Shown: piece by piece, positions 586 to 30,300 of the stretch
How positions within the stretch are numbered: the stretch's first letter is position 1
How the letters are laid out: every line of letters starts with the position of its first letter
Assembly (NCBI RefSeq): GCF_000007145.1
Contig: NC_003902.1
Span: 4,823,426 to 4,855,425 of the forward strand
Reading direction: 5' to 3'
DNA length: 32,000 bases
Origin: Xanthomonas campestris pv. campestris str. ATCC 33913
GTDB taxonomy: Bacteria; Pseudomonadota; Gammaproteobacteria; Xanthomonadales; Xanthomonadaceae
Position numbers and translations under genes: made by a program
The notes under the pieces: model-generated
Told to the model about the DNA's origin: nothing
The model's input: the letters and a program-made list of their open reading frames with translations, nothing else
The model's database searches: none

Positions 586-855
586 GCAGGGCCTGTGGCG
601 TCATGAAGACCTGGTATCTAGCCCCAGCACCTGCATGCAGGCAACAGGGATTTGCCCTGCCATAGGAACCTCGACTGGCAGGCACGCCTGCCGGCATATG
701 CTGCACTGCAGCGTGCCCTGTTTACTTATGATTGCGATATTCATATGCGAACAGCCCGGCCCCACCGGCTGCTGGATGTCCCCGATGTCGCATCACCGCT
801 GTGCCGATCACGTGCGCCCCCTTGCCGCCCGCGCCCTGCGCACCCGGTGGCCGGC

Positions 856-1863
856 ATGAATGTGCCGCGCCAGCGTGTGGGCAGCACTGCGGTGCAGTTG
901 TCGGCACTGGGCTTTGGCGCGGCGCCGATCGGCAATCTGTACAGCGCAGTCGACGAGGGCGACGCGCTGGCCGCGGTGACGGGCGCGTTCGAGGCCGGCA
1001 TCCGCCATTTCGATGCCGCGCCCTACTACGGCTACGGGCTGAGCGAAGCGCGCCTGGGCCGCGGGCTGGCCGGCGTGCCGCGCGCGGACTACACGCTGTC
1101 GACCAAGGTGGGCCGCTGCGTCTATGACGACGCAACGGCGGTTGCCGGGCGCGACGGCTTTGCGGTGGCCGGCCGGCGCGCCGAGTTCGACTACAGCGCC
1201 AATGGCGTGCGGCGCGCGTTCGCCTCCAGCCTGGAACGCCTGGGCACCGACTACATCGATGTGCTGTTGCTGCACGACATCGGTGCGCTGACCCACGGCG
1301 ACAACCATGCCAACGTGCTGCGCCAGGCCTTGGAGGAGGCCTTGCCGGCAATGGCGGAGCTGAAGGCGGCCGGTGCGTGCGGGGCGATCGGGCTGGGCGT
1401 CAACGAGCAGGACGTGGCACTGGAGGTGCTGCCACGGTTTCCGCTGGACTGCGTGATGCTGGCCGGCCGCTACACGCTGCTGGAACAGCACGGCGCCGCT
1501 GCGCTGCTCGACCAGGCGCAGCAACGCAACGTGGCGATCCTGTCGGCTGGCCCATACAGCTCGGGCCTGCTGAGCGACGCGCGCGGCCCCGGCGCCACCT
1601 ATAACTACGCGCCGGTGGATGCGGCCACGCTGGACCACGCGCAGCGCCTGTACGCCGCCTGCGCCGCGTTCGGCGTGGATATCGGTGCGGCCGCGTTGCA
1701 GTTCCCGCTGGCGCATCCGGCGGTGATCACGGTGGTGGCAGGCATGCGTAGCGTGGCCGAAGTGCAGTCGGCCAGTGCGCGCCTGCAGGCGACGGTGCCG
1801 GCCGCACTGTGGCAGCGGCTGCGCGACGACGGCCTGCTCGACGCGGCGTTGCCTACGCCATGA
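856..1863 (+). CDS. Aldo-keto reductase, likely L-fucose (D-threo-aldose) 1-dehydrogenase
   Basis: Internal ATG at 856 of track ORF 652..1863; the upstream 68 codons are Pro/Arg-rich junk. The protein starts MNVPRQRVGSTAVQLSALGFGAAPIGNLY and carries AKR signatures (FDAAPYYGYGLSE, STKVGR, LLLHD). It is the first gene of a fucose-pathway cluster like the one characterised in Xanthomonas campestris. Confidence 0.85.
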   Translation: MNVPRQRVGSTAVQLSALGFGAAPIGNLYSAVDEGDALAAVTGAFEAGIRHFDAAPYYGYGLSEARLGRGLAGVPRADYTLSTKVGRCVYDDATAVAGRDGFAVAGRRAEFDYSANGVRRAFASSLERLGTDYIDVLLLHDIGALTHGDNHANVLRQALEEALPAMAELKAAGACGAIGLGVNEQDVALEVLPRFPLDCVMLAGRYTLLEQHGAAALLDQAQQRNVAILSAGPYSSGLLSDARGPGATYNYAPVDAATLDHAQRLYAACAAFGVDIGAAALQFPLAHPAVITVVAGMRSVAEVQSASARLQATVPAALWQRLRDDGLLDAALPTP

Positions 1864-2732
1864 GCCGGGTCGATGCGCACCTGCATTTCTGGCATCTGGG
1901 CCGTGGCGATTACGACTGGCTTACGCCGGAGCTGAGTGCGCTGTACCGCGACTTCGGTCCGGACGATGTGAGCGCCGCGCTGGATGCGGCCGATGTCGAC
2001 AGCGTGGTGGTGGTGCAGGCCGCCGCCACCGAGGCGGAAACCTGCTACCTGTTCGAGCTGGCGCGCGACACCCCGCGCATTGCCGGCGTGGTGGGCTGGG
2101 TGGATCTTGCCGCGCCCGATGCACCGGCGCGGATCGGCGCATTGGTGCGCGCCGGCGGTGGCCTGCTCAAGGGCCTGCGCCCGATGGTGCAGGACATTGC
2201 CGATGTGCAGTGGCTGGCCAGCCCCGCGCTGGATGCCGCCTTCGATGCATTGATCGCGCACGACCTGGCATTCGATGCCTTGATCCGCGCCGCGCACGTG
2301 CCTGCGTTGCAGGCGCGCCTGCAGCGTCATCCCGGCCTACGCGTGGTCGTCGACCATGGCGGCAAACCGGCGATTGCCGCCGGCGAATTCGTTGCCTGGG
2401 CCGCCAGCATCGCGGCGCTGGCGCAGCATCCCGGCGTGCACTGCAAATTCTCCGGCCTGCTCACCGAAGCGGCGCGCGGCGCCACCGCGCAAACGCTCGA
2501 GCCCTATGTGGCGCATCTGTTCGCACGCTTCGGCGCGCAACGTGTGCTGTGGGGTAGCGACTGGCCGGTGCTGACCCAGCGCGCGGACTACGCACAGTGG
2601 CTGCAGATCGCACAGCAGCTGGTACAGCAGTACGCCGACGGCAATGCCGCGGCGGTGTTCGGCGACAACGCACGCACGTTCTATCGTCTGCCACGGCCGG
2701 CGGCCCCCACCCACGGAACCTTATCGGTATGA
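1860..2732 (+). CDS. Amidohydrolase-2 family lactonase, likely L-fucono-1,5-lactonase
   Basis: ATG at 1860 overlaps the upstream stop (ATGA, 1860-1863). The protein starts MSRVDAHLHFW (HxH metal motif) and contains VVDHGGKP and WGSDWPV, typical of amidohydrolase-2 sugar lactonases. Confidence 0.85.
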   Translation: MSRVDAHLHFWHLGRGDYDWLTPELSALYRDFGPDDVSAALDAADVDSVVVVQAAATEAETCYLFELARDTPRIAGVVGWVDLAAPDAPARIGALVRAGGGLLKGLRPMVQDIADVQWLASPALDAAFDALIAHDLAFDALIRAAHVPALQARLQRHPGLRVVVDHGGKPAIAAGEFVAWAASIAALAQHPGVHCKFSGLLTEAARGATAQTLEPYVAHLFARFGAQRVLWGSDWPVLTQRADYAQWLQIAQQLVQQYADGNAAAVFGDNARTFYRLPRPAAPTHGTLSV

Positions 2733-3499
2733 CAGTCTCCATTCCCACGACGCCCAACACCCGCCTGCAGGGCAAGCGCTGCCTGATCACCGCCGCCGGC
2801 GCCGGCATCGGCCGCGAAAGCGCACTGGCCTGCGCACGCGCCGGTGCGCACGTGATCGCCACCGACATCGACGCCGCCGCGCTGCAGGCGCTGGCCGCCG
2901 AATCCGACGCCATCACCACCCAGCTGCTGGATGTCACCGACGCGGCGGCGATCACTGCGCTGGTCGCGGCGCACGGCCCGTTCGATGTGCTGTTCAACTG
3001 CGCCGGCTACGTGCACCAGGGCAGCATTCTGGACTGCGACGAGCCGGCCTGGCGCCGCTCGTTCTCGATCAATGTCGATGCGATGTACTACACCTGCAAG
3101 GCGGTGCTGCCGGGCATGCTCGAGCGCGGCCGCGGCAGCATCATCAACATGTCCTCGGTGGCTTCCAGCATCAAGGGCGTGCCGAACCGCTTCGTGTACG
3201 GCGTGACCAAGGCCGCGGTGATCGGCCTGAGCAAGGCGATCGCCGCCGATTACGTGGCTCAGGGCGTGCGCTGCAATGCGATCTGCCCCGGCACCATCAA
3301 GACGCCGTCGCTGGGCCAGCGCGTGCAAGCGCTCGGCGGCGACGAGCAGGCGGTGTGGAAGAGCTTCACCGACCGCCAGCCGATGGGCCGCCTGGGCGAC
3401 CCGCGCGAGATCGCGCAGCTGGTGGTGTACCTGGCATCGGACGAGTCCTCGTTCACTACCGGCCAGACCCACATCATCGACGGCGGCTGGTCCAACTGA
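2729..3499 (+). CDS. Short-chain dehydrogenase/reductase, likely 2-keto-3-deoxy-L-fuconate 4-dehydrogenase
   Basis: ATG at 2729 overlaps the upstream stop (ATGA, 2729-2732). It has the Rossmann motif ITAAGAGIGRE, the NMSS and YGVTKAAV (YxxxK) catalytic signature, and a PGTIKTP motif. Confidence 0.85.
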   Translation: MTVSIPTTPNTRLQGKRCLITAAGAGIGRESALACARAGAHVIATDIDAAALQALAAESDAITTQLLDVTDAAAITALVAAHGPFDVLFNCAGYVHQGSILDCDEPAWRRSFSINVDAMYYTCKAVLPGMLERGRGSIINMSSVASSIKGVPNRFVYGVTKAAVIGLSKAIAADYVAQGVRCNAICPGTIKTPSLGQRVQALGGDEQAVWKSFTDRQPMGRLGDPREIAQLVVYLASDESSFTTGQTHIIDGGWSN

Positions 3500-3667
3500 G
3501 CGCGGCAACGCATCAAGGTGGCGCTCACCACAGCGTGGACGCGGCCAGTGCCAGATGCGGTCTGTATCGCGCGTCCGCCCTGATTTGAGCACCCCATCCT
3601 TACCCACCCGATGCACGCGCGCTAGGTTTGCTAGCCGCTCCATTCCTCATCTGCAAAGGAAGACTGC

Positions 3668-4525
3668 ATGAAACTCGTACGCGTAGGCGCCCCCGGCCAG
3701 GAACGTCCCGGCCTGATCGACAGCGACGGCAAGCTCCGCGACCTGAGCGGCGTGATCAGCGATGTGGCCGGTGAGCACATCACCAACGCCGGTCTGGACA
3801 CGTTGCGCGCGCTGGATGTCGCATCGCTGCCGCTGATCGAAGGCGAGCAGCGCTACGGCGCGGCGGTTGGCCAGATCGGCAAGTTCATCTGCGTGGGCCT
3901 GAACTACGCCGACCACGCCGCCGAATCGGGCATGGAAGTGCCCAAGATGCCGATTCTTTTCATGAAGGCGACCACCGCGGTGTGCGGCCCCAACGACACG
4001 GTGATCATCCCGCGCGGCTCGGTGAAGAGCGACTGGGAAGTGGAACTGGGCGTGGTGATTGGCGATGTGGCGCGCGATGTGTCGGTGGACGAGGCGCTGA
4101 ACCACGTGGCCGGCTATGCGGTGATCAACGATCTGTCCGAGCGCGAATTCCAGCTCGAACACGGCGGCCAGTGGGTCAAGGGCAAGAGTGCCGACACCTT
4201 CGGCCCGATCGGCCCGTGGCTGGTGACGCGCGATGAGATCGCCGACCCGCAGAACCTGTCGATGTGGCTGGAGGTCAACGGCCACCGCTACCAGCACGGC
4301 AGCACCCGCACGATGGTATTCGGCGTGGCCGAACTGGTCAGCCACATCAGCCGCTACATGACGCTGATGCCGGGCGATGTGATCAGCACCGGCACCCCGC
4401 CGGGCGTGGGCCTGGGCCAGAAGCCGCCGGTGTATCTCAAGCCGGGCGACGTGATGGAACTGGAGATCGAAGGCCTGGGTCGCCAGCGTCAGCCGGTGGT
4501 GGCCCATCCGCGTGATGCTGTTTGA
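3668..4525 (+). CDS. Fumarylacetoacetate hydrolase (FAH) family protein, likely 2,4-diketo-3-deoxy-L-fuconate hydrolase
   Basis: Full track ORF, with AGGAAG 7 nt upstream of the ATG. FAH-family motifs are present: FICVGLNYADHAAE, EVELGVVIG and PGDVISTGTPPGVG. The fucose-cluster context supports the assignment. Confidence 0.85.
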   Translation: MKLVRVGAPGQERPGLIDSDGKLRDLSGVISDVAGEHITNAGLDTLRALDVASLPLIEGEQRYGAAVGQIGKFICVGLNYADHAAESGMEVPKMPILFMKATTAVCGPNDTVIIPRGSVKSDWEVELGVVIGDVARDVSVDEALNHVAGYAVINDLSEREFQLEHGGQWVKGKSADTFGPIGPWLVTRDEIADPQNLSMWLEVNGHRYQHGSTRTMVFGVAELVSHISRYMTLMPGDVISTGTPPGVGLGQKPPVYLKPGDVMELEIEGLGRQRQPVVAHPRDAV

Positions 4526-4616
4526 GGCTGCCTAACTCCCTTCCCGGGATGCTGGTCCCCTGGGAGCGAGCTTGCAGTCAAGACAGGTAATGATGCATCC
4601 GCGCGATGCAACTCAA

Positions 4617-4929
4617 GCCCCTCTCCCCGCGGGAGAGGGGTTGGGGTGAGGGTACGTAGCGACGTATCCGAACAGTTCGTCGCGCTGTCACGATTGTTGT
4701 TAGACGTGACGTGTCGGCGCTTGTATTGATACGTCATGCGTAATTTGTTTGCGGTACGGCTGCGCGTTGAATGACTAAGCGCTGTCGCGCGTTGATATCG
4801 ATGCATCGTGAGTTGTGCAGTAATTCGTCGGTCTGTAGTGCAAACGCTTGAGTGACTGCAGTGCTTCGACAACCTAGGCGCTGCGCGTTCGTACCCTCAC
4901 CCCAACCCCTCTCCCGGTGGGAGAGGGGC
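4617..4929. mobile_element. MITE-like nonautonomous element: 40-bp terminal inverted repeats (4617-4656 and 4890-4929) flanking a 233-bp AT-richer core
   Basis: The reverse complement of 4890-4929 matches 4617-4656 at 38 of 40 positions. Both mismatches fall in the 3-nt loop of an internal 10-bp hairpin (CCCCTCTCCC / GGGAGAGGGG). The repeat core GGGAGAGGGGTTGGGGTGAGGGTACG is a motif I recognise as a dispersed intergenic repeat in Xanthomonadaceae and pseudomonads. I could not find a target-site duplication or any coding capacity. Confidence 0.5.
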
Positions 4930-5016
4930 TCTGGCGCCTTTCTCCGCCTCCGTCTCCGTTCCCCGTTTCTGTTTTATTTCGCACGTTTTATCCCCGTTTC
5001 CATCGCCAGGACTTCC

Positions 5017-6342
5017 ATGCGCACCATCATCGCCCTCGAGACCCACGACGTCCGCTTCCCCACCTCGCGCGAGCTCGATGGGTCGGACGCGATGAATCCC
5101 GATCCGGATTACTCGGCCGCCTATGTGGTGCTCCGCACCGACGGTGCGGAAGACCTGGCTGGCTACGGCCTGGTGTTCACCATCGGCCGCGGCAACGATG
5201 TGCAGACCGCCGCCGTGGCCGCATTGGCCGAGCACGTGGTTGGCCTGTCGGTGGACAAAGTGATCGCGGACCTGGGCGCGTTCGCACGCCGCCTCACCAA
5301 CGACTCGCAGCTGCGCTGGCTGGGCCCGGAAAAGGGCGTGATGCACATGGCGATCGGCGCGGTGATCAACGCCGCCTGGGATCTGGCCGCGCGCGCCGCC
5401 AACAAGCCGCTGTGGCGCTTCATTGCCGAGCTCACGCCAGAGCAGCTGGTGGACACCATCGACTTCCGCTACCTCAGCGACGCCCTCACCCGCGACGAAG
5501 CGCTGGCCATCCTGCGCGATGCACAACCGCAGCGTGCAGCACGCACCGCCACGCTGATCGAACAGGGCTATCCGGCCTACACCACCTCGCCCGGCTGGCT
5601 CGGCTATTCGGATGAAAAGCTGGTGCGCCTGGCCAAGGAAGCGGTGGCCGATGGCTTCCGCACCATCAAGCTCAAGGTCGGCGCCAACGTGCAGGACGAT
5701 ATCCGTCGCTGTCGCCTGGCGCGCGCCGCGATCGGCCCGGACATCGCAATGGCGGTAGACGCCAACCAGCGCTGGGACGTGGGCCCGGCGATCGACTGGA
5801 TGCGCCAGCTGGCCGAATTCGACATCGCCTGGATCGAAGAACCCACCAGCCCGGACGATGTGCTCGGTCACGCCGCCATCCGCCAGGGCATCACCCCGGT
5901 GCCGGTCTCCACCGGCGAGCACACCCAGAACCGGGTGGTGTTCAAGCAGCTGCTACAGGCCGGCGCAGTAGACCTGATCCAGATCGACGCCGCACGCGTG
6001 GGCGGCGTCAACGAAAACCTCGCCATCCTGCTGCTGGCCGCCAAATTCGGCGTGCGCGTGTTCCCGCACGCCGGCGGCGTGGGCCTGTGCGAACTGGTGC
6101 AGCACCTGGCCATGGCCGACTTCGTCGCGATCACCGGCAAGATGGAAGACCGCGCCATCGAATTCGTCGACCACCTGCACCAGCACTTCCTGGACCCGGT
6201 ACGCATCCAGCACGGCCGCTACCTCGCTCCAGAGGTGCCCGGTTTCTCGGCGGAAATGCACCCCGCCTCGATCGCAGAATTCAGCTACCCCGACGGCCGC
6301 TTCTGGGTCGAAGACCTGGCAGCCAGCAAGGCGAAGGCCTAA
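5017..6342 (+). CDS. fucD: L-fuconate dehydratase (enolase superfamily, mandelate racemase subgroup)
   Basis: Internal ATG at 5017 of track ORF 4852..6342; the upstream 55 codons translate the repeat element. The protein starts [39 protein letters not shown] and has enolase-superfamily ligand and catalytic positions ([35 protein letters not shown]). At 441 aa it matches my memory of the characterised X. campestris FucD. Confidence 0.9.
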
Positions 6343-22592: not shown

Positions 22593-22750
22593 CGACAGAC
22601 CTTCGGATGCGTTGAACCCGGCGGAGCGCACCGTTACGCTGCTGGACCGCTCACCTGGCAAGGAGCGCCGACGCTACACCACGCATCGGCCTGCCGCCAA
22701 CGTGAAATCCGGCAACATGCCGAATCGATCCGGAGATATAACCTGACGTG

Positions 22751-23290
22751 ATGGAGACTGCAGCAGCTGCCACGCCCGCGTCCGCTTCGCCCCTGGCCAT
22801 CGTGGTGATGGGCGTTTCGGGCAGCGGCAAGACCACCATTGCGCAGGCCCTGGCCACGCACTACGGCTTCCGTTTTCTCGATGCCGACGACTATCACAGC
22901 GTGGCCGCGCGCGCGCAGATGGCATCCGGGCAACCGCTCACCGATGCGATGCGGCTGCCCTGGGTAGAGCTGCTGTCGGCGACCTTGCGCGACTGTGTGC
23001 AGAGCGGTGAATCGGTGGTGCTGGCGTTCTCCGGATTGCGCGGCACGCACCGCCAATTGCTGCGCCGCAGCGGGGTTCCGATGCGCTTTGTGTTCCTGCA
23101 TGCCGCGCCGCACGTGATCGCCGCACGCCTGAGCGCACGCGCGGGCCATTTCATGCCGCCGAGCCTGCTCGACAGCCAGCTGCAGACGCTGGAACTGCCG
23201 CTGGACGAAGCCGACGTGGTATCGGTGGACGTGGATGCCACCGTGCCGGAGGTGGTGCAGGACGCGATCGCGCAGCTGGCATTGGAGTAG
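22751..23290 (+). CDS. gntK: Gluconokinase (GntK/IdnK family, P-loop kinase)
   Basis: IVVMGVSGSGKTTIAQALA..GFRFLDADDYH...MASGQPLTD..RLPW is the canonical gluconate kinase N-terminus. The start is ATG 22751 or the adjacent GTG 22748. It is divergent from the GPH-GH94 operon. Confidence 0.85.
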   Translation: METAAAATPASASPLAIVVMGVSGSGKTTIAQALATHYGFRFLDADDYHSVAARAQMASGQPLTDAMRLPWVELLSATLRDCVQSGESVVLAFSGLRGTHRQLLRRSGVPMRFVFLHAAPHVIAARLSARAGHFMPPSLLDSQLQTLELPLDEADVVSVDVDATVPEVVQDAIAQLALE

Positions 23291-24080
23291 CGCAACGCGT
23301 TGCAGTGGCAGTGGGATCGATGGGTCGCATGTGTGGGCGGCGTGCGTGCGATAACGCCGCTGCAACGCCAACTCAGGTGCGGTGACGGCGTGATGTGTGG
23401 CAGCGCGTGGGGTCCGCCGCACAGCATGTAGCTTCAACTTGCGGATGCGATAGAAATTGCTGCCGCAGAACGCGCTGCTGACGCTGCGGCGCACGGCACG
23501 TTGCAGCAAACGGCACCATCGCGTTCGCATTCGGCGACGATGCGCAGCTGGCTGCTTCCGCGACATCCAACTCAGTGCGCCCTCGCATATCCGCGGGCAC
23601 GCGCCAATACGTAATCGGTGCATGCATCGAACCCCACCGTGACCCGCGCGCGCGTAGACACGCAGCATGCTGCGCCGCTACAGGATTGAACGCATCGCGC
23701 CGCTTGAAGCGCGGCGTATTGGTAGTCTGCAGATGCCGCGATGCAGGGCAGCTCACGCGAGTGCCAGGCGTCACACAGGATGCGCAACGTGGCCAGGTTA
23801 CTTTCAGTAGACCGCTGTTTTACAGGGGTTTGCGTGATCGTCCGATTGAATCATTTTGTCTATCACAGCCCGCGCAGATCGTGATGCATCATCAGTATTT
23901 GTGCGAATAACGAACGCGCTGAACAGAATTTTTCCAAGCTGGTACTACCAGACACAACCAGACCCGACCGCGACATGAACACGGCGCCACCGATGGGTTG
24001 CACGGTCATCGCAATCGGCGATCTTCACCACGCAGATCCGGGGGGATTCAGCGCTTTCCTTCACCAATGGACACGCCGTG

Positions 24081-25808
24081 ATGACCAATTCTCTTCGCCG
24101 CTTGCGGTTTCGCAGTTTGACGCTCATCCCCTGCCTGCTCGCCAGCGCAGTGGCTTTCGCCCAGTCCGGCACAACCGCCCCACCGTCGGTGTCCTCCCTG
24201 GATACCCGCGCCTTTGCAGCGTCCGGCCAGATCTGGCGTTCCTTTGGCAGCAATCTTCCGTTTGCCAGCCCCAATAATTGGCCTACCGCTGGTGGCGGTT
24301 ATTTCAACAGCCGCTTCGCGCCTGGCGAATGGAAGATCAATCGCACTACCGCCCCGACCCTCAAGCCGGCGTGGACCTTGACCACCACTGGCGACATCTC
24401 GGCGACGCCGAGCGTAGAAGGCGGCACGCTGTACGTGCCCGACTGGGGCGGCACGCTGTATAGCGTGGACACGCAGAGCGGCAAGCCGAACTGGCAGGCC
24501 AAGCTGTCCGACTACACCGGCAACGCCAACTCGGTGACGCGCAATACGCCGGCGATCAGCGGCAAGAGCATCATCGTTGGCGACCAGGCCTCCGGTACGG
24601 TGATGGCAATCGACAAGAAGACCGGCAAGTTGCTGTGGAGCAGCGTGGCCGAATCCAACCCGCAGGCACGCATCACTTCTTCGCCGGTGATCTACGGCAA
24701 CCGCATCTACGTGGGCATTTCGTCGGGTGACTGGGGCAACCTGGCCGCCAACCACACCTTCAGCTTCCGCGGCAGCGTGGTGGCACTGGATCTGAACACC
24801 GGCAAGAAGGTGTGGCAGTTCTACAACGTGCCCGAGGGCTATACCGGCGCATCGGTGTGGGGCCAGGTGGCAATCGATCCGATCAGCCGCCGCCTGTATT
24901 TCGGCACCGGCAACAACTACAACATCCCCGCTGGCGTGGGCAACTGCGTCTCCAATGCGCGGTCCTACCGCGGCAGCGAACTCACCGTGCAGGATGAGTT
25001 GAACTGCATGGCGCCGGACAACTACGTCGACTCGGTGGTCGCCTTGAACCTGGACACCGGCAAGCTGGCCTGGGCCGACCGCGCGCAGGGCTACGACGCC
25101 TGGAACCTGTCCTGCATCGTGGCGCCCACCAATGGGCTGTGCCCGAACACGCAGGCCACCAACCTGACCGGTCCTGACTACGACTTCGGCGGCGCCGGCG
25201 TACAGCTGTTCACCGTCTGGCGCGACGGCAAGCCGCAGCAGTTGGTCGGCGCCGGCCAGAAGAGCGGCATTTACTGGGCCTTCGACGCCAGGACTGGCGC
25301 CAAGGTGTGGTCCACGCAGGTGGGCCCGGGCGGCACCACCGGCGGCGTCGAGTGGGGCACCGCGTTCGACCCGTACAAGTCGCAGGTCTATGTGGCCATC
25401 AATAACAGCTCCAACGCCACCTATACCCTGGGGCCGGACAACACCGTCAGCCACAACGGCGGCTCGTGGGCAGCGCTGGATGCGGCCACCGGCAAGATCA
25501 AGTGGCAGGTCAAGGTGCCCGGCGTAAACAGCGTCAACCCGAACGTGCCGGCCGGTGGTCAGGGCTCGCTGACCGTGTCGCCGAACCTGCTGTACGCCGG
25601 TTCGATGGCCGGCAACATGGTCGCCCTGGATACCGACACCGGCGCCACATTGTGGAACTACAACGCCACCGGTTCGGTGATCAGCTCGCCGGCAGTGGTC
25701 GACGGCGCGCTGTATTGGGGCGCGGGCTATGGCCGCTTCAACTTCGGCACCGCCGCCACCAGCAACCAGCTGATCAAGTTTGTGCCGGACAGCGGTGCGG
25801 CCAAGTAA
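24081..25808 (+). CDS. Secreted PQQ-like beta-propeller repeat protein (quinoprotein dehydrogenase-like; no cytochrome c motif seen)
   Basis: Signal peptide MTNSLRRLRFRSLTLIPCLLASAVAFAQ. Repeated blades of the type GTLYSVDTQSGKPNWQ, GTVMAIDKKTGKLLWS, GSVVALDLNTGKKVWQ, DSVVALNLDTGKLAWA, WAALDAATGKIKWQ and GNMVALDTDTGATLWN are present. No CxxCH was found. The start is ATG 24081 or GTG 24078. Confidence 0.7.
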   Translation: MTNSLRRLRFRSLTLIPCLLASAVAFAQSGTTAPPSVSSLDTRAFAASGQIWRSFGSNLPFASPNNWPTAGGGYFNSRFAPGEWKINRTTAPTLKPAWTLTTTGDISATPSVEGGTLYVPDWGGTLYSVDTQSGKPNWQAKLSDYTGNANSVTRNTPAISGKSIIVGDQASGTVMAIDKKTGKLLWSSVAESNPQARITSSPVIYGNRIYVGISSGDWGNLAANHTFSFRGSVVALDLNTGKKVWQFYNVPEGYTGASVWGQVAIDPISRRLYFGTGNNYNIPAGVGNCVSNARSYRGSELTVQDELNCMAPDNYVDSVVALNLDTGKLAWADRAQGYDAWNLSCIVAPTNGLCPNTQATNLTGPDYDFGGAGVQLFTVWRDGKPQQLVGAGQKSGIYWAFDARTGAKVWSTQVGPGGTTGGVEWGTAFDPYKSQVYVAINNSSNATYTLGPDNTVSHNGGSWAALDAATGKIKWQVKVPGVNSVNPNVPAGGQGSLTVSPNLLYAGSMAGNMVALDTDTGATLWNYNATGSVISSPAVVDGALYWGAGYGRFNFGTAATSNQLIKFVPDSGAAK

Positions 25809-25856
25809 TCGGCTAGCACGTGCGCTGCGTTGAATGACGCGTAGTGACAGCAAAAC

Positions 25857-25884
25857 AACGACGCCACCTTCGGGTGGCGTCGTT
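25857..25884. terminator. Perfect 12-bp stem hairpin between convergent genes (candidate bidirectional terminator)
   Basis: AACGACGCCACC (25857-25868), TTCG loop, GGTGGCGTCGTT (25873-25884). It is followed by GTGTGTG on the + strand and preceded by CAAAA (UUUUG on the - strand). Confidence 0.6.
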
Positions 25885-25990
25885 GTGTGTGGCGCCGAGA
25901 GACGGGCCGTATCCGATGCGCGTGTGCACATGATCGGCGCCCTCGTTGCTGCACGTCCCACACCGGCCTTGCTTCGAGCGCGAGCACGCC

Positions 25991-26218
25991 CTACAGCCGC
26001 GTGACCTGGCATAAGCGGATCTGCCCCGCTTCCAGCCCATGCGCTTCGGCCGCGCGACGGCGCAACGCGCACACCAGTTCTGCGGCATCGAGCACACCAT
26101 CGGCAGGCACTTCCACGCTGTAGGCCAGTTGCCCCCACAGCACCGGCCGACCATCGCAATAGCCTTCGTAGTCGGCGAAGTAATGCAGCAGCTGCCGCTC
26201 AGGTGCCAACGTGGACAT
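25991..26218 (-). CDS. Small hypothetical protein (75 aa), third gene of the AroQ-like operon
   Basis: Internal ATG at 26218 of track ORF 25991..26377; the longer form overlaps the upstream gene by ~180 nt and is Arg/Trp-rich junk. MSTLAPERQLLHYFADYEGYCDGRPVLWGQLAYSVEVPADGVLDAAELVCALRRRAAEAHGLEAGQIRLCQVTRL has protein-like composition but no family I recognise. It overlaps the upstream gene by 20 nt. Confidence 0.5.
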   Translation of the reverse strand: MSTLAPERQLLHYFADYEGYCDGRPVLWGQLAYSVEVPADGVLDAAELVCALRRRAAEAHGLEAGQIRLCQVTRL

Positions 26219-26648
26219 CGCCCTGAATCTCCGTGCAGCCCAGATGTTCCAGCGCGATCTCCAGCCCAAGCAAATAACTCTGCGCGCAATAGCCACGCAC
26301 GATGGCCACCCGCTGGCCCAGCCCGGCGGGCAAACAACGCTCCGGCCGGTCCGTGCTGTCGTCGTGGGCTTCCACATACGGATACGCCAGCCCGGCGAGC
26401 ACGCGGTGCAGCCGCACGCTGTCCACGCAGCTGCCCGGATCGATCAGCGCGATCTCCATGCGCGCCTGCCCGGCCACGCGTAAGGCATCCAGCAACTCCT
26501 GCTCCGACCCACAGGCGCGCAGCGCCACCGTCTTGCCCGCATCCCTGGCGCAGCGCACCAACTGGGTGATCACCGCACGCGGCAATGCCTGCGGCCCACG
26601 CACCAGCGACGATGCCGCTTCCGGCCCACGCAGAATCATGATCGACAT
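26199..26648 (-). CDS. Type II 3-dehydroquinate dehydratase (AroQ)-like protein B, probably non-catalytic
   Basis: 149 aa. MSIMILRGPEAA.., CGSEQELLDAL, IALIDPGSCVDSVRLHRVL, PYVEAHDDS and VAIVRGYCAQSYLLGLEIALEHLG line up by eye with AroQ hallmarks (I.VL.GPNLN, SN.EGE.ID, I.NP.A.THTS.A.RDA, .IEVH.SN, G.I.G.G..GY..AL..L). The lid R..P..YG segment and the THTS His are missing. Confidence 0.6.
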   Translation of the reverse strand: MSIMILRGPEAASSLVRGPQALPRAVITQLVRCARDAGKTVALRACGSEQELLDALRVAGQARMEIALIDPGSCVDSVRLHRVLAGLAYPYVEAHDDSTDRPERCLPAGLGQRVAIVRGYCAQSYLLGLEIALEHLGCTEIQGDVHVGT

Positions 26649-26658
26649 GTCGGCGGCC

Positions 26659-27081
26659 TCAGGCAGCCACGCGCATCAGCGCATGCAGCGCCGGTAAACA
26701 CCGCGCTGCAATGCCGAGTGACATCGCATACGCACGCGGCGCATCGTGCGGCGTGATTACCACCGCCAGCGGCGCATGCTGCGGATGCAGCCACGGCTCC
26801 AGCTCCTGGCCGGCGTCGGCATGCAGCTCGATGTACGGCGTGGGCAAGGCATCTACTGCCGCACGCAAGGCCGTCGCACACGTCCGCTCGTGCAGCGGCA
26901 GATCGCCGGAATCCAGCAGCACCAGTTCCACATCGGAATCGCCACCGGCTGCCTGCAGCCCGGCGATCAAGCTCGCAAGGTCAGCACACGCCAGCGTGCG
27001 CAGGTCACGCCCGGCACACAGCGGCAGCGGCGCCACCGGTATCGCATCGGACTGCGGGCCACGCAAAATCAGGATACACAT
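26659..27081 (-). CDS. Type II 3-dehydroquinate dehydratase (AroQ)-like protein A, more diverged paralogue, probably non-catalytic
   Basis: 140 aa. MCILILRGPQSD.., VELVLLDSGD..., TPYIELHADAG, LAVVITPHDAPRAYAMSLGIAA. It shares the same spacing of motifs as protein B. The stop lies 10 nt before the start of B. Confidence 0.55.
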   Translation of the reverse strand: MCILILRGPQSDAIPVAPLPLCAGRDLRTLACADLASLIAGLQAAGGDSDVELVLLDSGDLPLHERTCATALRAAVDALPTPYIELHADAGQELEPWLHPQHAPLAVVITPHDAPRAYAMSLGIAARCLPALHALMRVAA

Positions 27082-27250
27082 CGTCTTCGACTCAACGCAC
27101 CACGGTGCGGGAGTGCCAAAGTAGGCCTGCCGGGCATAAAGGCGCTATTTGCGCCGAGGCCACAGACCATAAAAAAGGCGTAAGCGGCCAGGTAGGTAGG
27201 CGACAGACGCGCGACGATCAGTGTCGTGGGAACAGTCAACTACCCGTCAT

Positions 27251-27291
27251 CACATATGCAGCGCGATGAGATCCATCGCGCCGCATATGTG
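27251..27291 (-). terminator. Long hairpin just downstream of tamB
   Basis: CACATATGCAGCGCGATG (27251-27268) pairs with CATCGCGCCGCATATGTG (27274-27291), 17 of 18 bp, around a 5-nt loop. It begins 34 nt after the tamB stop. No U-tract follows on the minus strand. Confidence 0.4.
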
Positions 27292-27324: not shown

Positions 27325-30300
27325 CTACTTCTCACGCCGCCAATTGATCGATCCCTTGGTCTCCACCGTGCTGGATTCGGCTTCCACATCGAAGCCGCGG
27401 CTGAGCAGGTATTTGAGCGTGAGCACCGAGCCGCTGCCGACCATCGAGACGCCGTAGCCGACGTAGAGTTTGGGCGAGAGGTACTTGCCGAAGCCCACGA
27501 CCGAGCCGACGGTGCTGGATTCGCTCACGCCGGCTTCGTCCAGGCCGAGCTTGGCGCCGATCTGCGAGGCGATCAGGCTGCTGCCGGCCGAGAGCGCGGC
27601 CGAGGCGGCGCTGACCTGCTGGGTTTCATCGCTGCTGGCGGTGGACAGGCCGCGGCCGAGCACCAGGTACGACAGCGCTTCGGATTGCGACATTGCCGGC
27701 TCCGACCACACATCCGCACGCGGCGATTCGGCGCGTCCGCTGACGTCGATGCCGGCGGTGACGTCGCCGATCTTGCGTTCGGCGCGCAGGCTCACGCGCG
27801 GGTCGGAGACGATGTTGTTGTTCCAGGTCAGCTGGCCGCGGCTGATGGTCAGATCCTGGCCATAAGCCTTGTAGCGGCCGCGCACGTCCAGCCCGCCATT
27901 GGCGGTCATTTCGCGGCCCGGGCGCGCGCGGATCTGCATCTGCCCGCTTAGCCCGCCTTTCAGGCCGAAACCGCTCATGTTGACCTTGTCGCCGAGCACG
28001 ATGGCCAGGTCCATATCCAACGGCGAGGCGGGTGCGGCTTCCGGGTCCACCGGGTCCAGCACCACCACGTCTTCGGACACCGAGGTGCCGCGGTCGAGCC
28101 GTTCCAGATCGATGTCGGCCTCGGGCACGGTGACCTTGCCGCGCAGCTGCATGGTGGTGTCGACGATGCCGAACTGCATGTCCGGGTTGGCGACGATGCG
28201 CAACTCGCTGGTGTTGTAGGCCAGCACGTTTTCACCGCGGATATTGAGCAGCAGCGGCGTACTGGTGCCGAACCACGACAGCCCGCCATCGATGTTGAGC
28301 GTGCCGTCACCGGACTTGGCCGAGGCGGTGATCTTGGCCGAGCCATCCGGCAGCGCGTCGAAGCGGCCCTTGCCTTCGCTCAGGGTCAGGCCCATCGACG
28401 GGTATTCGGCGGTGAAATCGCTCAAGGTCGCATCGCCGCCGAGCAGCGGTTTGTCGCGCGTGCCGCGCAGGCTCACGTGGCCTTCGACCAGCCCCTTGGG
28501 CCGCACCACATCGGCCACCACCAGCTCCAGCCAATACAGCCGCGACATGTTGAGATACAGCTCGCCGTTGAGCGGCGCATACGCATCCCAGCCGGTGTTG
28601 AACTTGGCATCCACAAAGCCATTGCCCTGGAAGCCCACGCCGAGCTTGCCCTGGATCTGTTGCGGGGTGAAATCGGCCTGCACGCTGAACTGGTCGTAGC
28701 GCAGCAACTCGCCACGATTGGGATTGCCGGCCACCGCCGCGTAGCGGTTCTCGCCCAGGCGCACGCCGCCTTCTGGCGAAGCGATGCGGAACGAGCCTTC
28801 CCAGGCATTGCCGCGTGGCTTGAAGCTGCCGTCCAGGCTGAGGTCACCGCGTAGATAGATCTGCCGGCCTTCCTGCTTGGGCAGCCACGGCTGCACCAGC
28901 GACAGCGGCAACGCGCCGCCATGCACCACCATGCCCTCGCGCGGCCAGTTGGCGCTGGCGCACAGCGCACCGCCGGTGGCTGCGCCGAGGCAGGTGTCCG
29001 ACAGAGTGAAGGCAGCGCCCTCGGTGCTGAACTGCGCCGGCTGGCGCAGCGCCCAAGCATCGCCCTTGGCCGGCACGATGCGCAGCGTGCTCACCTGCCC
29101 CTGCCAGCGCGCGCCGTTGCGGCGCACGTCGCCCTGCAGCGCGACGCTGGCCATGCTGTTGGCGATGTCCGCATCCAGCCGCAGCGCTTCCACCGCACCG
29201 CGTGCCTGCACGCGCACGCTATCCAGCACCACGCCCGCTTCGATGGCGGTGCCCTGCAAGGCCAACTGCCCGTCGCTGCCGCTCCATGGCAGGCGCCCGC
29301 GCAGGCTCACGCTCTGCGCGCTGTAGTCGTTCCAGCGCAGGCCAGTGCCGGCCAGGTCGGCGGTGACAGTCGGCGCGTCGCGGCGGCCGTTGACCTGCAA
29401 CTGCCCACGCACGGTGCCGGTGGCGCCGGGTAACAGGTCGTCCAGCTGCAGCGGCTGTAATTGCGCGGCGATGTCGAGCTGGTCGCCCACGGTGCCCTTG
29501 GCGTCGATGCGGCTGCTGCCCAGTGCCAGCTGCAGCTGACCTTCGCCCTGCGTGCCGCGCAAGGCGAACTTGCCATTGGCCGACAGCGCGCGTTGGCGCA
29601 ACTGCCCGGTCAGGGTTGGGATGTCGGCGGTGGCCTCGTAGCCCGGCGAGACGCCCCCGGCCGGTGCCGGCAACTGGCGGCCCTTGGAGGCGACCTGGCC
29701 GGACAGATTGCCGTTCCAGCCCGGCACGAAATAGCCCGGGTCGAACTTGGCCAGCTGCGCGGTGAGGTCCCACTGCAGTGCGGGCGCCCAGGCCACCTCG
29801 CCGGTGAGATCCAGCGAACCGCCCGGGGTCTTGGCCTGCACCTGCTTGAGCTGGGCACGCTGGTCGTTGCCGCGGCTGTCGAACACCAGTTCGGCCTGCT
29901 GGCCATCGCGCTGCACGGTGGCCCGCCCGATGGCGGCCCAGGCCTTGAGCGTCCCGGCCAGGCCCAGGCGCGCGTCGGTGAGTTCCACCGGCACCGCCGG
30001 CGCATCCGGAGTGGCGGGGTCCGCAGCTGGCGTGAAGCGCAGGCCGCTGGCATTGACCGAAAACCGGAAGCTGGCGTTGTCGGCATCTCGGAAATCGGCG
30101 CTGCCGCGTAGCTGGGTGCGGCCTTCGAACGCATCGATGATCAACGGCTCCACCGTGAGCACCTGGTCTTGCAGGCTCACGTGCGAGGGCTGCAAGGTGG
30201 CACTCAACTCGCCTTGTTTGACGCTGCCACGCAAGTCGGCCTTGCCGCCCTTGCCCGAGGCCTGCAGGTCCAGCGCGATGGGCGTGGCCGGCGGGGTCTC

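Follow-up and report, generated by a model that had tools for sequence, protein, structure and literature searches.

What function is carried out by two adjacent genes whose products resemble AroQ, the type II 3-dehydroquinate dehydratase, but seem to lack its catalytic residues? This question was raised by three genes, called here A, B, and C, in a 32,000 bp stretch of the genome of Xanthomonas campestris pv. campestris str. ATCC 33913 (contig NC_003902.1, positions 4,823,426–4,855,425; the whole stretch is called the window, and positions are counted from its first nucleotide). On balance, we favour the explanation that A-B-C is an AroQ-derived set of proteins without dehydratase activity, which would belong to the potassium-limitation (KdpE) regulon and would assist or regulate potassium acquisition. 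The three genes of this module are the following:

26659–27081, minus strand: gene A, 140 amino acids (aa), AroQ-fold paralogue of the "A-type", with the signature GP, LLDSGD, PYIELH, and HAPLAVVI.

26199–26648, minus strand: gene B, 149 aa, AroQ-fold paralogue of the "B-type", with near-invariant C46, D70, E93, H95, and D97 and a C-terminal HVGT.

25991–26218, minus strand: gene C, 75 aa, encoding a small protein of beta-beta-alpha-beta order whose core, LHYFADYEGY..GRP.LWGQ, is conserved, with RL at the C-terminus.

The original prediction, made from the DNA sequence of the window, had described three tightly packed genes on the minus strand, and the open reading frame (ORF) coordinates agreed with it in size and in spacing: A and B are separated by 10 nt and B and C overlap by 20 nt. 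The ribosome-binding site of gene B (GAGG) overlaps the stop codon of gene A, and the ATG of gene C lies inside a longer ORF of 128 aa. The motifs that had been quoted were all found (MCILILRGP, MSIMILRGP, PYIELH, PYVEAH, SEQELLDAL, IDPGSCVDS, and Y..SL.IA or Y..GL.IA). The best database match of B was from X. campestris, with 97% identity. One genome per species was scanned, yielding 140 loci with a relative of B, and the counts of module loci out of 80 given below come from the best 80 of these (Xanthomonas and Stenotrophomonas). A was directly upstream of B, at a distance of 3–10 nt, in 79 of them, the remaining locus being cut by the end of the contig. In comparisons with other Xanthomonas species, the dN/dS ratio (Nei–Gojobori) was 0.14–0.22 for A, 0.07–0.14 for B, and 0.08–0.22 for C. 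The three are real genes under purifying selection, and C is an accessory member of the module.

Several comparisons relate A and B to AroQ. Protein B matched the Pfam family PF01220 with an E-value of 2.4e-4 and 21.3 bits, just under the gathering score of 23.3 bits, and the NCBIfam aroQ models (TIGR01088 and NF0038xx) with 22–27 bits, compared to curated cut-offs of 130–195; A alone gave no match to either. A search of the Protein Data Bank (PDB) with the single sequence of B returned AroQ chains, down to an E-value of 2e-6. A and B share 28% identity (BLASTP, E-value 2e-7), and the profiles of the two families aligned with a probability of 99.2% (hhalign). When these profiles were searched against the PDB the E-values reached 1.2e-12 for the B family and 5e-8 for the A family, and the significant matches were essentially only AroQ chains. 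The AlphaFold model of B (predicted local distance difference test, pLDDT, 85) showed a five-stranded alpha/beta fold. The top 50 PDB structures returned by Foldseek for this model were all AroQ, except for one designed nanoparticle protein (9clz), and the closest was 4l8l (template modelling score 0.72, E-value 2e-8). The matches of B, the alignment of A with B, the family profiles, and the fold of the B model taken together establish that A and B are paralogous to each other and truly homologous to type II dehydroquinase. The AroQ-likeness that had been noticed by eye thus holds, for A by way of the profiles. Literature searches on dehydroquinase-like pseudoenzymes and Xanthomonas aroQ paralogues, and others on KdpE in Xanthomonas or Stenotrophomonas, found nothing on the A/B family, which represents a variant of the AroQ fold that is new and confined to one order. 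An aroQ gene annotated "Type II 3-dehydroquinate dehydratase" in a transcriptome paper on S. maltophilia was taken to be the housekeeping gene.

Gene C had no match in Pfam or NCBIfam. Its AlphaFold model was confident (pLDDT 92) and had the order beta-beta-alpha-beta. Its profile found nothing in the PDB under an E-value of 0.2, and its best Foldseek match, the archaeal ribosomal protein LX (E-value 0.025), was not significant. The three proteins were also compared with the PADLOC models of defence proteins, with no match at an E-value of 1 or less, and a reading as an anti-phage defence system was dropped.

The state of the former active site was examined in relatives collected with a profile that was searched exhaustively against 1.8 billion cluster representatives; the search produced 261 relatives, and the listed full-length ones were aligned. 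The residue comparison covered 38 canonical AroQ, 34 B-type, and 23 A-type cluster representatives. Residues are numbered as in Mycobacterium tuberculosis AroQ, whose sequence, as used here, is consistent with the PDB alignments. In type II dehydroquinase, Tyr24 in the flexible lid, Arg19, and Arg108 are catalytic. N12, R19, Y24, N75, H81, D88, E99, H101, S103, R108, and R112 were conserved in the 38 canonical sequences. Tyr24, present in all 38, was deleted in every B-type (34/34) and every A-type (23/23) protein. His81, the histidine of the THTS motif, was lost in both types, with a varied residue or a gap in its place. In the HMMER alignment, the four lid residues "xxYG" and the THTS histidine appeared as insertions of AroQ relative to B. 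Arg108 and Arg112 were replaced by Pro or Leu in the B-type and mostly by Leu in the A-type, Asn12 by Glu, Asp, or His in the module proteins, and Arg19 was replaced as well. Glu99 and His101 were retained, each in 31 of the 34 B-type proteins and in 100% of the A-type; they correspond to E93 and H95 in B and to E85 and H87 in A. Alignment to canonical AroQ thus bore out the earlier statement that the lid tyrosine and the THTS histidine are gone and that the E-x-H pair is kept.

Other positions had gained new residues. Ser52, a serine in 35 of the 38 canonical sequences, was a cysteine in all 34 B-type proteins and mostly a cysteine in the A-type. Asn75 was an aspartate in 32 of the 34 B-type and in 91% of the A-type proteins. 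Ser103 was an aspartate in 31 of the 34 B-type proteins and was variable, often aspartate, in the A-type. The replacements of Ser52 by Cys and of Asn75 by Asp form a new signature common to A and B at the same strand-end positions, to which the B-type adds the replacement of Ser103 by Asp. The near-invariant residues of B (R7-G8-P9, C46, D70-P71-G72-x-C74, E93-x-H95-x-D97, and G119-Y120) lie at the C-terminal ends of the beta-strands, where the AroQ active site is located. The B-type proteins also end in an invariant HVGT, within a tail that was disordered in the AlphaFold model. Because this signature is near-invariant at the former active-site crown, it suggests a pocket that was rebuilt and retained rather than one that decayed, with a loss of positive charges and a gain of acidic and thiol groups. 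Reading the Cys/His/Asp/Glu cluster as a metal site would be speculation only. The label of catalytically dead pseudoenzyme given to both proteins in the original prediction is correct for the residues of the dehydroquinase reaction, which are lost, but appears too strong given the conserved Cys, Asp, and Glu-x-His-Asp signature.

Compared with the AroQ of Pseudomonas aeruginosa (4L8L) and M. tuberculosis (1H05), the module proteins have the same flavodoxin-like fold and homology over their full length, together with the GP turn after strand beta-1, the P-x-(I/V)-E-x-H strand, and the C-terminal helix. They differ by a shortened lid without the catalytic tyrosine, by the replacement of Arg19, Arg108, Arg112, His81, Asn12, Asn75, and Ser103, by the gain of Cys at Ser52 and of Asp at Asn75 and at Ser103, by the HVGT tail of the B-type, by their organization as an A+B gene pair with or without the 75 aa partner, and by scores under all of the curated thresholds. 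No association with genes for shikimate or quinate came to light.

Tandem fusions of two AroQ domains, about 300 aa long, were seen in metagenomes (P0220, P0226, P0235, P0150, and P0209). Both domains looked canonical in P0150 and P0209. In P0220, P0226, and P0235 the second domain was devoid of the lid tyrosine and of other catalytic residues. The latter three are similar to the A-B pair in having a duplicated AroQ fold with one copy lacking the lid and catalytic residues, but their first domain is canonical and apparently active, whereas A and B are both non-canonical and are encoded by separate genes. They provide an independent case, in which an apparently active AroQ domain is joined to a degenerate one, and suggest that mixed oligomers of diverged domains recur.

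The second line of evidence is upstream of gene A, where two elements were recognized:

27118–27184, minus strand: predicted kdp-type (KdpE-box) promoter, from sequence conservation and the kdp-promoter profile.

27096–27109, minus strand: short inverted repeat, CGCAC-N4-GTGCG, located downstream of the promoter and ahead of the start codon, present in all genera (in Stenotrophomonas the stem is CGCGCC/GGCGC); it could be an operator or a hairpin of the 5' untranslated region.

In the alignment of Xanthomonas species only about 110 nt next to A were conserved, and the part close to tamB, the gene located upstream, was not. The predicted promoter of the window contains two half-sites, CTTACG (27184–27179) and TTTATG (27173–27168), 11 bp apart with five nucleotides between them, a third box TTTATG at 27140–27135, 33 bp past the second, and a −10-like TACTTT at 27123–27118. 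The same architecture preceded the first module gene in Stenotrophomonas, Pseudoxanthomonas, Dyella, and the B-C locus L086, whatever the flanking genes. It consists of (A/G/C)YTACG-N5-TTTAYG, a third TTTAYG 33 bp (74 loci) or 32 bp (4 loci) past the second, a −10-like hexamer 11–12 nt past the third box, and then the short inverted repeat. The paired boxes were present in 78 of 86 loci, 58–63 nt before the start codon, with one further match in 2.04 Mb. With TACTTT as the −10 element the half-sites fall at about −73 to −57, a position which resembles that of the KdpE site of Escherichia coli. A scan for the sigma-70 consensus found no promoter, and readings of the boxes, by eye, as sigma-54, sigma-32, sigma-28, or extracytoplasmic function (ECF) sigma sites were dropped as the spacings do not fit. 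A riboswitch was considered, and Rfam gave only spurious microRNA-like matches on hairpins. A structured leader was also considered: the folding z-score was −1.6, and RNAalifold on 16 genera and species produced only a 4-pair hairpin with no covariation on both sides. As neither Rfam, folding, nor RNAalifold supported a structured RNA, the upstream conservation was read as that of a promoter or operator.

Distant B-type genes were found in kdp loci, and the promoters were therefore compared. The half-sites of E. coli KdpE are TTTATA-N5-TTTACA (PMC3264566). The promoters of the gcw_chp-kdpF-kdpABC operons of three loci, L092, L093, and L070, contained TTTAYG-N5-TTTAYG, as did 63 of 80 metagenomic kdpA loci. 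The kdp promoters also had a third box 32 or 33 bp past the second and a −10-like hexamer, as in the module. The exact KdpA of several of these kdp loci was found in S. maltophilia, other Stenotrophomonas, Pseudoxanthomonas, and Acinetobacter, and the 90%-identity cluster of the KdpA of L104 includes Pseudomonas KdpA. Since the sources of KdpA span these genera, the layout of the boxes was considered to be that of a general gammaproteobacterial kdp promoter. An nhmmer profile was built from 59 unique kdp promoters only, a set covering S. maltophilia, Pseudoxanthomonas, Pseudomonas, and Acinetobacter, and was searched against 1.1 Mb of module loci and the window. In the window its sole match was at 27124–27183 on the minus strand (E-value 5.4e-6). 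In the 1.1 Mb it matched nothing but three kdp promoters and, in about 85 loci, the region upstream of the module.

The module is also physically tied to kdp genes in three independent arrangements. In L092, gcw-kdpABC-kdpD-kdpE is followed directly by A-B-C. The response regulator next to the module in this locus is an orthologue of KdpE (E-value 2e-56 to 4KNY). It retains R193, R200, and T215, the residues through which E. coli KdpE contacts DNA (PMC3264566). In L093 the order is kdpFABC-B-kup-kdpD-kdpE, and B appears translationally coupled to kup, its stop codon overlapping the kup start. In L070, a Stenotrophomonas, kdpCBA-gcw is divergent from A-B, with kdp-type promoters back to back. 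The likeness to the kdpFABC promoter and KdpE regulon thus comprises TTTAYR direct repeats with 11 bp phasing, the third box 32–33 bp downstream, the −10-like hexamer 11–12 nt beyond it, the significant profile match, and linkage to kdpABC, kdpDE, or kup in three lineages. The differences are that the module genes encode neither a transporter nor a two-component system and that their upstream half-site is weaker.

In these three loci a Gcw_chp (PF09694) gene opens the kdp operon ahead of kdpF or kdpA (L092, 761–1492; L093, 4594–5325; L070, 4617–5243). The KdpE-type boxes of the kdp operons of Xanthomonadales are upstream of this gene, about 860–950 nt before kdpA.

The composition of the module varied among its carriers. 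Named members were from Xanthomonas, Stenotrophomonas, Pseudoxanthomonas, Lysobacter, "[Pseudomonas] boreopolis", and Dyella, all in the order Xanthomonadales/Lysobacterales. The full A-B-C set was present in Xanthomonas, Pseudoxanthomonas, L084, and L092, and A-B only in the S. maltophilia group, where gene C is absent. L086 had B-C without A, L093 had B alone within the kdp operon, and an A-type gene was alone in Dyella (L081 and L090) and in L091. Every Xanthomonas locus had gene C, as did one Stenotrophomonas clade (58–66% identity), Pseudoxanthomonas, L086, L092, and some metagenomic relatives; it was recognizable in Pseudoxanthomonas, L086, and L092, and the B-C spacing varied. The original prediction of a hetero-oligomer is plausible in that the A and B genes are tightly coupled in 79 loci, and A and B likely associate where both genes occur, judging from this coupling. 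Such an oligomer is not obligatory, since the A-type occurs alone and B-C occurs without A.

Two loci were peculiar. In X. arboricola CFBP 7645 (L013, 6513–6659) only an ORF of 41 aa matched C, truncated or frameshifted, which may be a pseudogene or a sequencing error. An assembly labelled Bacillus subtilis subsp. subtilis SK7B5 (L045, JAHREJ010000027.1) contained an A-B pair at Stenotrophomonas-like identity, from which the NCBI entry "hypothetical protein KQ945_11015 [Bacillus subtilis]" (P0023) derives. It is almost certainly a Stenotrophomonas contamination of the Bacillus assembly.

We propose the following model for the role of the module. Upon potassium limitation, phosphorylated KdpE would activate the transcription of A-B-C by binding to the direct repeats of TTTAYG, located at about −73 to −57. 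The products, predicted to be cytoplasmic, would assemble into an AroQ-like oligomer of A and B, in which C may be an optional third subunit. Because positive charges were lost and acidic and thiol groups were gained, the rebuilt pocket would bind a cation, or another ligand or partner, and not an anionic sugar acid. The complex would then assist or regulate potassium acquisition. A more specific version, which we put forward tentatively and with clearly less confidence, is that A-B-C is an unrecognized component of the response to potassium starvation, an oligomer induced by KdpD/KdpE in the cytoplasm across Xanthomonadales, whose rebuilt, acidic Cys/His pocket might sense or bind a cation, or which might dock on potassium-uptake proteins such as Kup or Kdp.

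A number of observations weigh against this model. The KdpE control of the module is a prediction from its sequence. In the window the upstream half-site, CTTACG, is degenerate and deviates at its first base; in Stenotrophomonas it is GCTACG, and in the E. coli work the first two T's of the half-site were invariant (PMC3264566). The sample of kdp promoters contained none from Xanthomonas, and in the window and most loci the module is not near any potassium gene. Cysteine and histidine are not typical ligands of potassium. The putative oligomer of A and B also has to be set against the existence of solo A-type and B-C loci.

If this more specific version is correct, the module would represent a new kind of accessory or regulatory subunit for potassium homeostasis. 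The KdpE regulon is thought, in most bacteria, to be little more than kdpFABC, and a functional kdp-type promoter in front of A-B-C would add to it a conserved operon, in an order which includes major plant pathogens and the opportunist S. maltophilia. This regulatory context was previously unnoticed. The module also provides a clear case of an enzyme fold in which the active site appears rebuilt and not merely lost.

The main competing explanation is that A and B form a new enzyme with the AroQ fold, which would use the Glu-His pair and the new Cys and Asp residues on a different, non-anionic substrate, in a role unrelated to potassium, the likeness of the promoter being due to another regulator of the OmpR family or to chance. 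The strong conservation of the new signature exactly at the active-site crown and the low dN/dS values are in agreement with it, as is a solo A-type gene located near a P-II gene and the polyamine-synthesis genes speE and speA. We judge it unlikely in this form, given that the kdp-promoter profile found no other match in 1.1 Mb, that three independent gene arrangements link the module to kdp, and that no metabolic neighbour was conserved. An enzymatic role and control of the module by KdpE are compatible and not mutually exclusive.

The genes surrounding the module lead to another explanation, in which A-B-C would be a dead pseudo-dehydroquinase acting as a scaffold or regulator tied to TamAB or, through a pyrroloquinoline quinone (PQQ) propeller, to a periplasmic quinate route. 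The neighbours in the window are as initially described. The tamB gene (PF04357), preceded by an Omp85/TamA gene, ends at 27325, 243 nt upstream of A with a hairpin between them, and the convergent gene on the other side (24078–25808, 576 aa) encodes a beta-propeller of the PQQ type, with an N-terminus that resembles a signal peptide. Many Xanthomonas species likewise have the trio between tamB and the propeller gene, and the order tamA-tamB-A-B-C is shared by a Stenotrophomonas clade and a metagenome contig. The trio does not always follow tamB: in the comparison of loci, tamB was within 6 kb upstream of the module in only 22 of the 80. Between tamB and A there was a three-gene J-domain/Hsp70/J-domain cassette in L001 (370–5332) and L028 (368–5265), and a transposase of the insertion sequence family IS3 in L006 (3155–4524). 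The neighbours were different in S. maltophilia (a signal-peptidase gene and dcp), in Pseudoxanthomonas (a hemerythrin gene to one side and, to the other, an ECF sigma/FecR/TonB-receptor set), in Dyella, in L086, and in L092, and the PQQ-propeller gene adjoins the module only in Xanthomonas. A and B open directly with strand beta-1 and have no signal peptide, which places them in the cytoplasm. Since the context is not conserved and A and B have no signal peptide, the functional tie to the translocation and assembly module (TAM) or to periplasmic quinate oxidation, the latter raised as conceivable in the original prediction, was rejected as very unlikely. The conserved promoter of the module itself and the insertions on the tamB side argue that A-B-C is an autonomous operon and no appendage of tamAB.

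The stretch between tamB and A is a hot spot for insertions in Xanthomonas; in L004 and L009 it contains low-GC DNA without any ORF of high third-position GC. Just after tamB, at 27251–27291, a perfect-looking palindrome was observed, with 18 nt arms (CACATATGCAGCGCGATG and CATCGCGCCGCATATGTG), a 5 nt loop, and no T-run. It was not at the same position in the other aligned Xanthomonas species and could be a tamB terminator or an element similar to a repetitive extragenic palindrome. In the Pseudoxanthomonas loci L082 and L083 (5433–11,927), A-B-C is followed by genes for an ECF sigma factor, a FecR-like anti-sigma factor, and a TonB-dependent receptor, and a hemerythrin gene is just upstream. 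In L082 the stop codon of C and the start of the sigma factor gene overlap, and this arrangement could be a local operon fusion.

The database names lead to a third explanation, that B works as an isoenzyme of type II 3-dehydroquinate dehydratase, the name under which NCBI and UniRef list it. The names, the weak matches to PF01220 and TIGR01088, and the AroQ fold speak for it, but the 22–27 bits are far from cut-offs of 130–195, and in the aligned representatives Tyr24 is deleted and Arg19, Arg108, Arg112, His81, Asn12, Asn75, and Ser103 are replaced. We consider this explanation extremely improbable. With the lid tyrosine missing and other residues in place of the Arg, His, Asn, and Ser that bind the substrate, the name given to B is almost certainly an over-annotation, and neither A nor B, from their aligned residues, is a dehydroquinase. 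A wrong name here would affect how the metabolism of Xanthomonas and Stenotrophomonas is reconstructed.

Finally, virtually no credit can be given to the idea that A, B, and above all C are chance open frames in GC-rich DNA: the window does contain many overlapping spurious ORFs and C is short and without a database family, but dN/dS is far below 1 for all three genes, and C is kept at 58–66% identity in Stenotrophomonas, is recognizable in Pseudoxanthomonas, L086, and L092, and has a model with a pLDDT of 92.

One more element adjoins the module:

25855–25886, no strand assigned: intrinsic terminator after gene C, found by a terminator scan, with a GC-rich 14 bp stem and a T-run after it; it separates the module from the convergent PQQ-propeller gene.

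Elsewhere the window holds genes for sugar-acid catabolism, for regulators of the IclR and AraC types, for an S41 peptidase and a hybrid histidine kinase, and for a GH94 enzyme and an MFS_2 transporter, and nothing related to shikimate, quinate, or potassium was found there. Between the MFS_2 transporter and the PQQ propeller, a 344 aa ORF on the minus strand (22634–23668) had no Pfam match and a middling third-position GC of 0.69, and its status as a gene is uncertain. The genes at 652–6342, encoding an aldo-keto reductase, an Amidohydro_2 protein, a short-chain dehydrogenase/reductase, a member of the fumarylacetoacetate (FAA) hydrolase family, and an enolase-family member of the mandelate racemase/muconate lactonizing enzyme type, look like a catabolic pathway for sugar acids of the fuconate/rhamnonate type, unrelated to the module.

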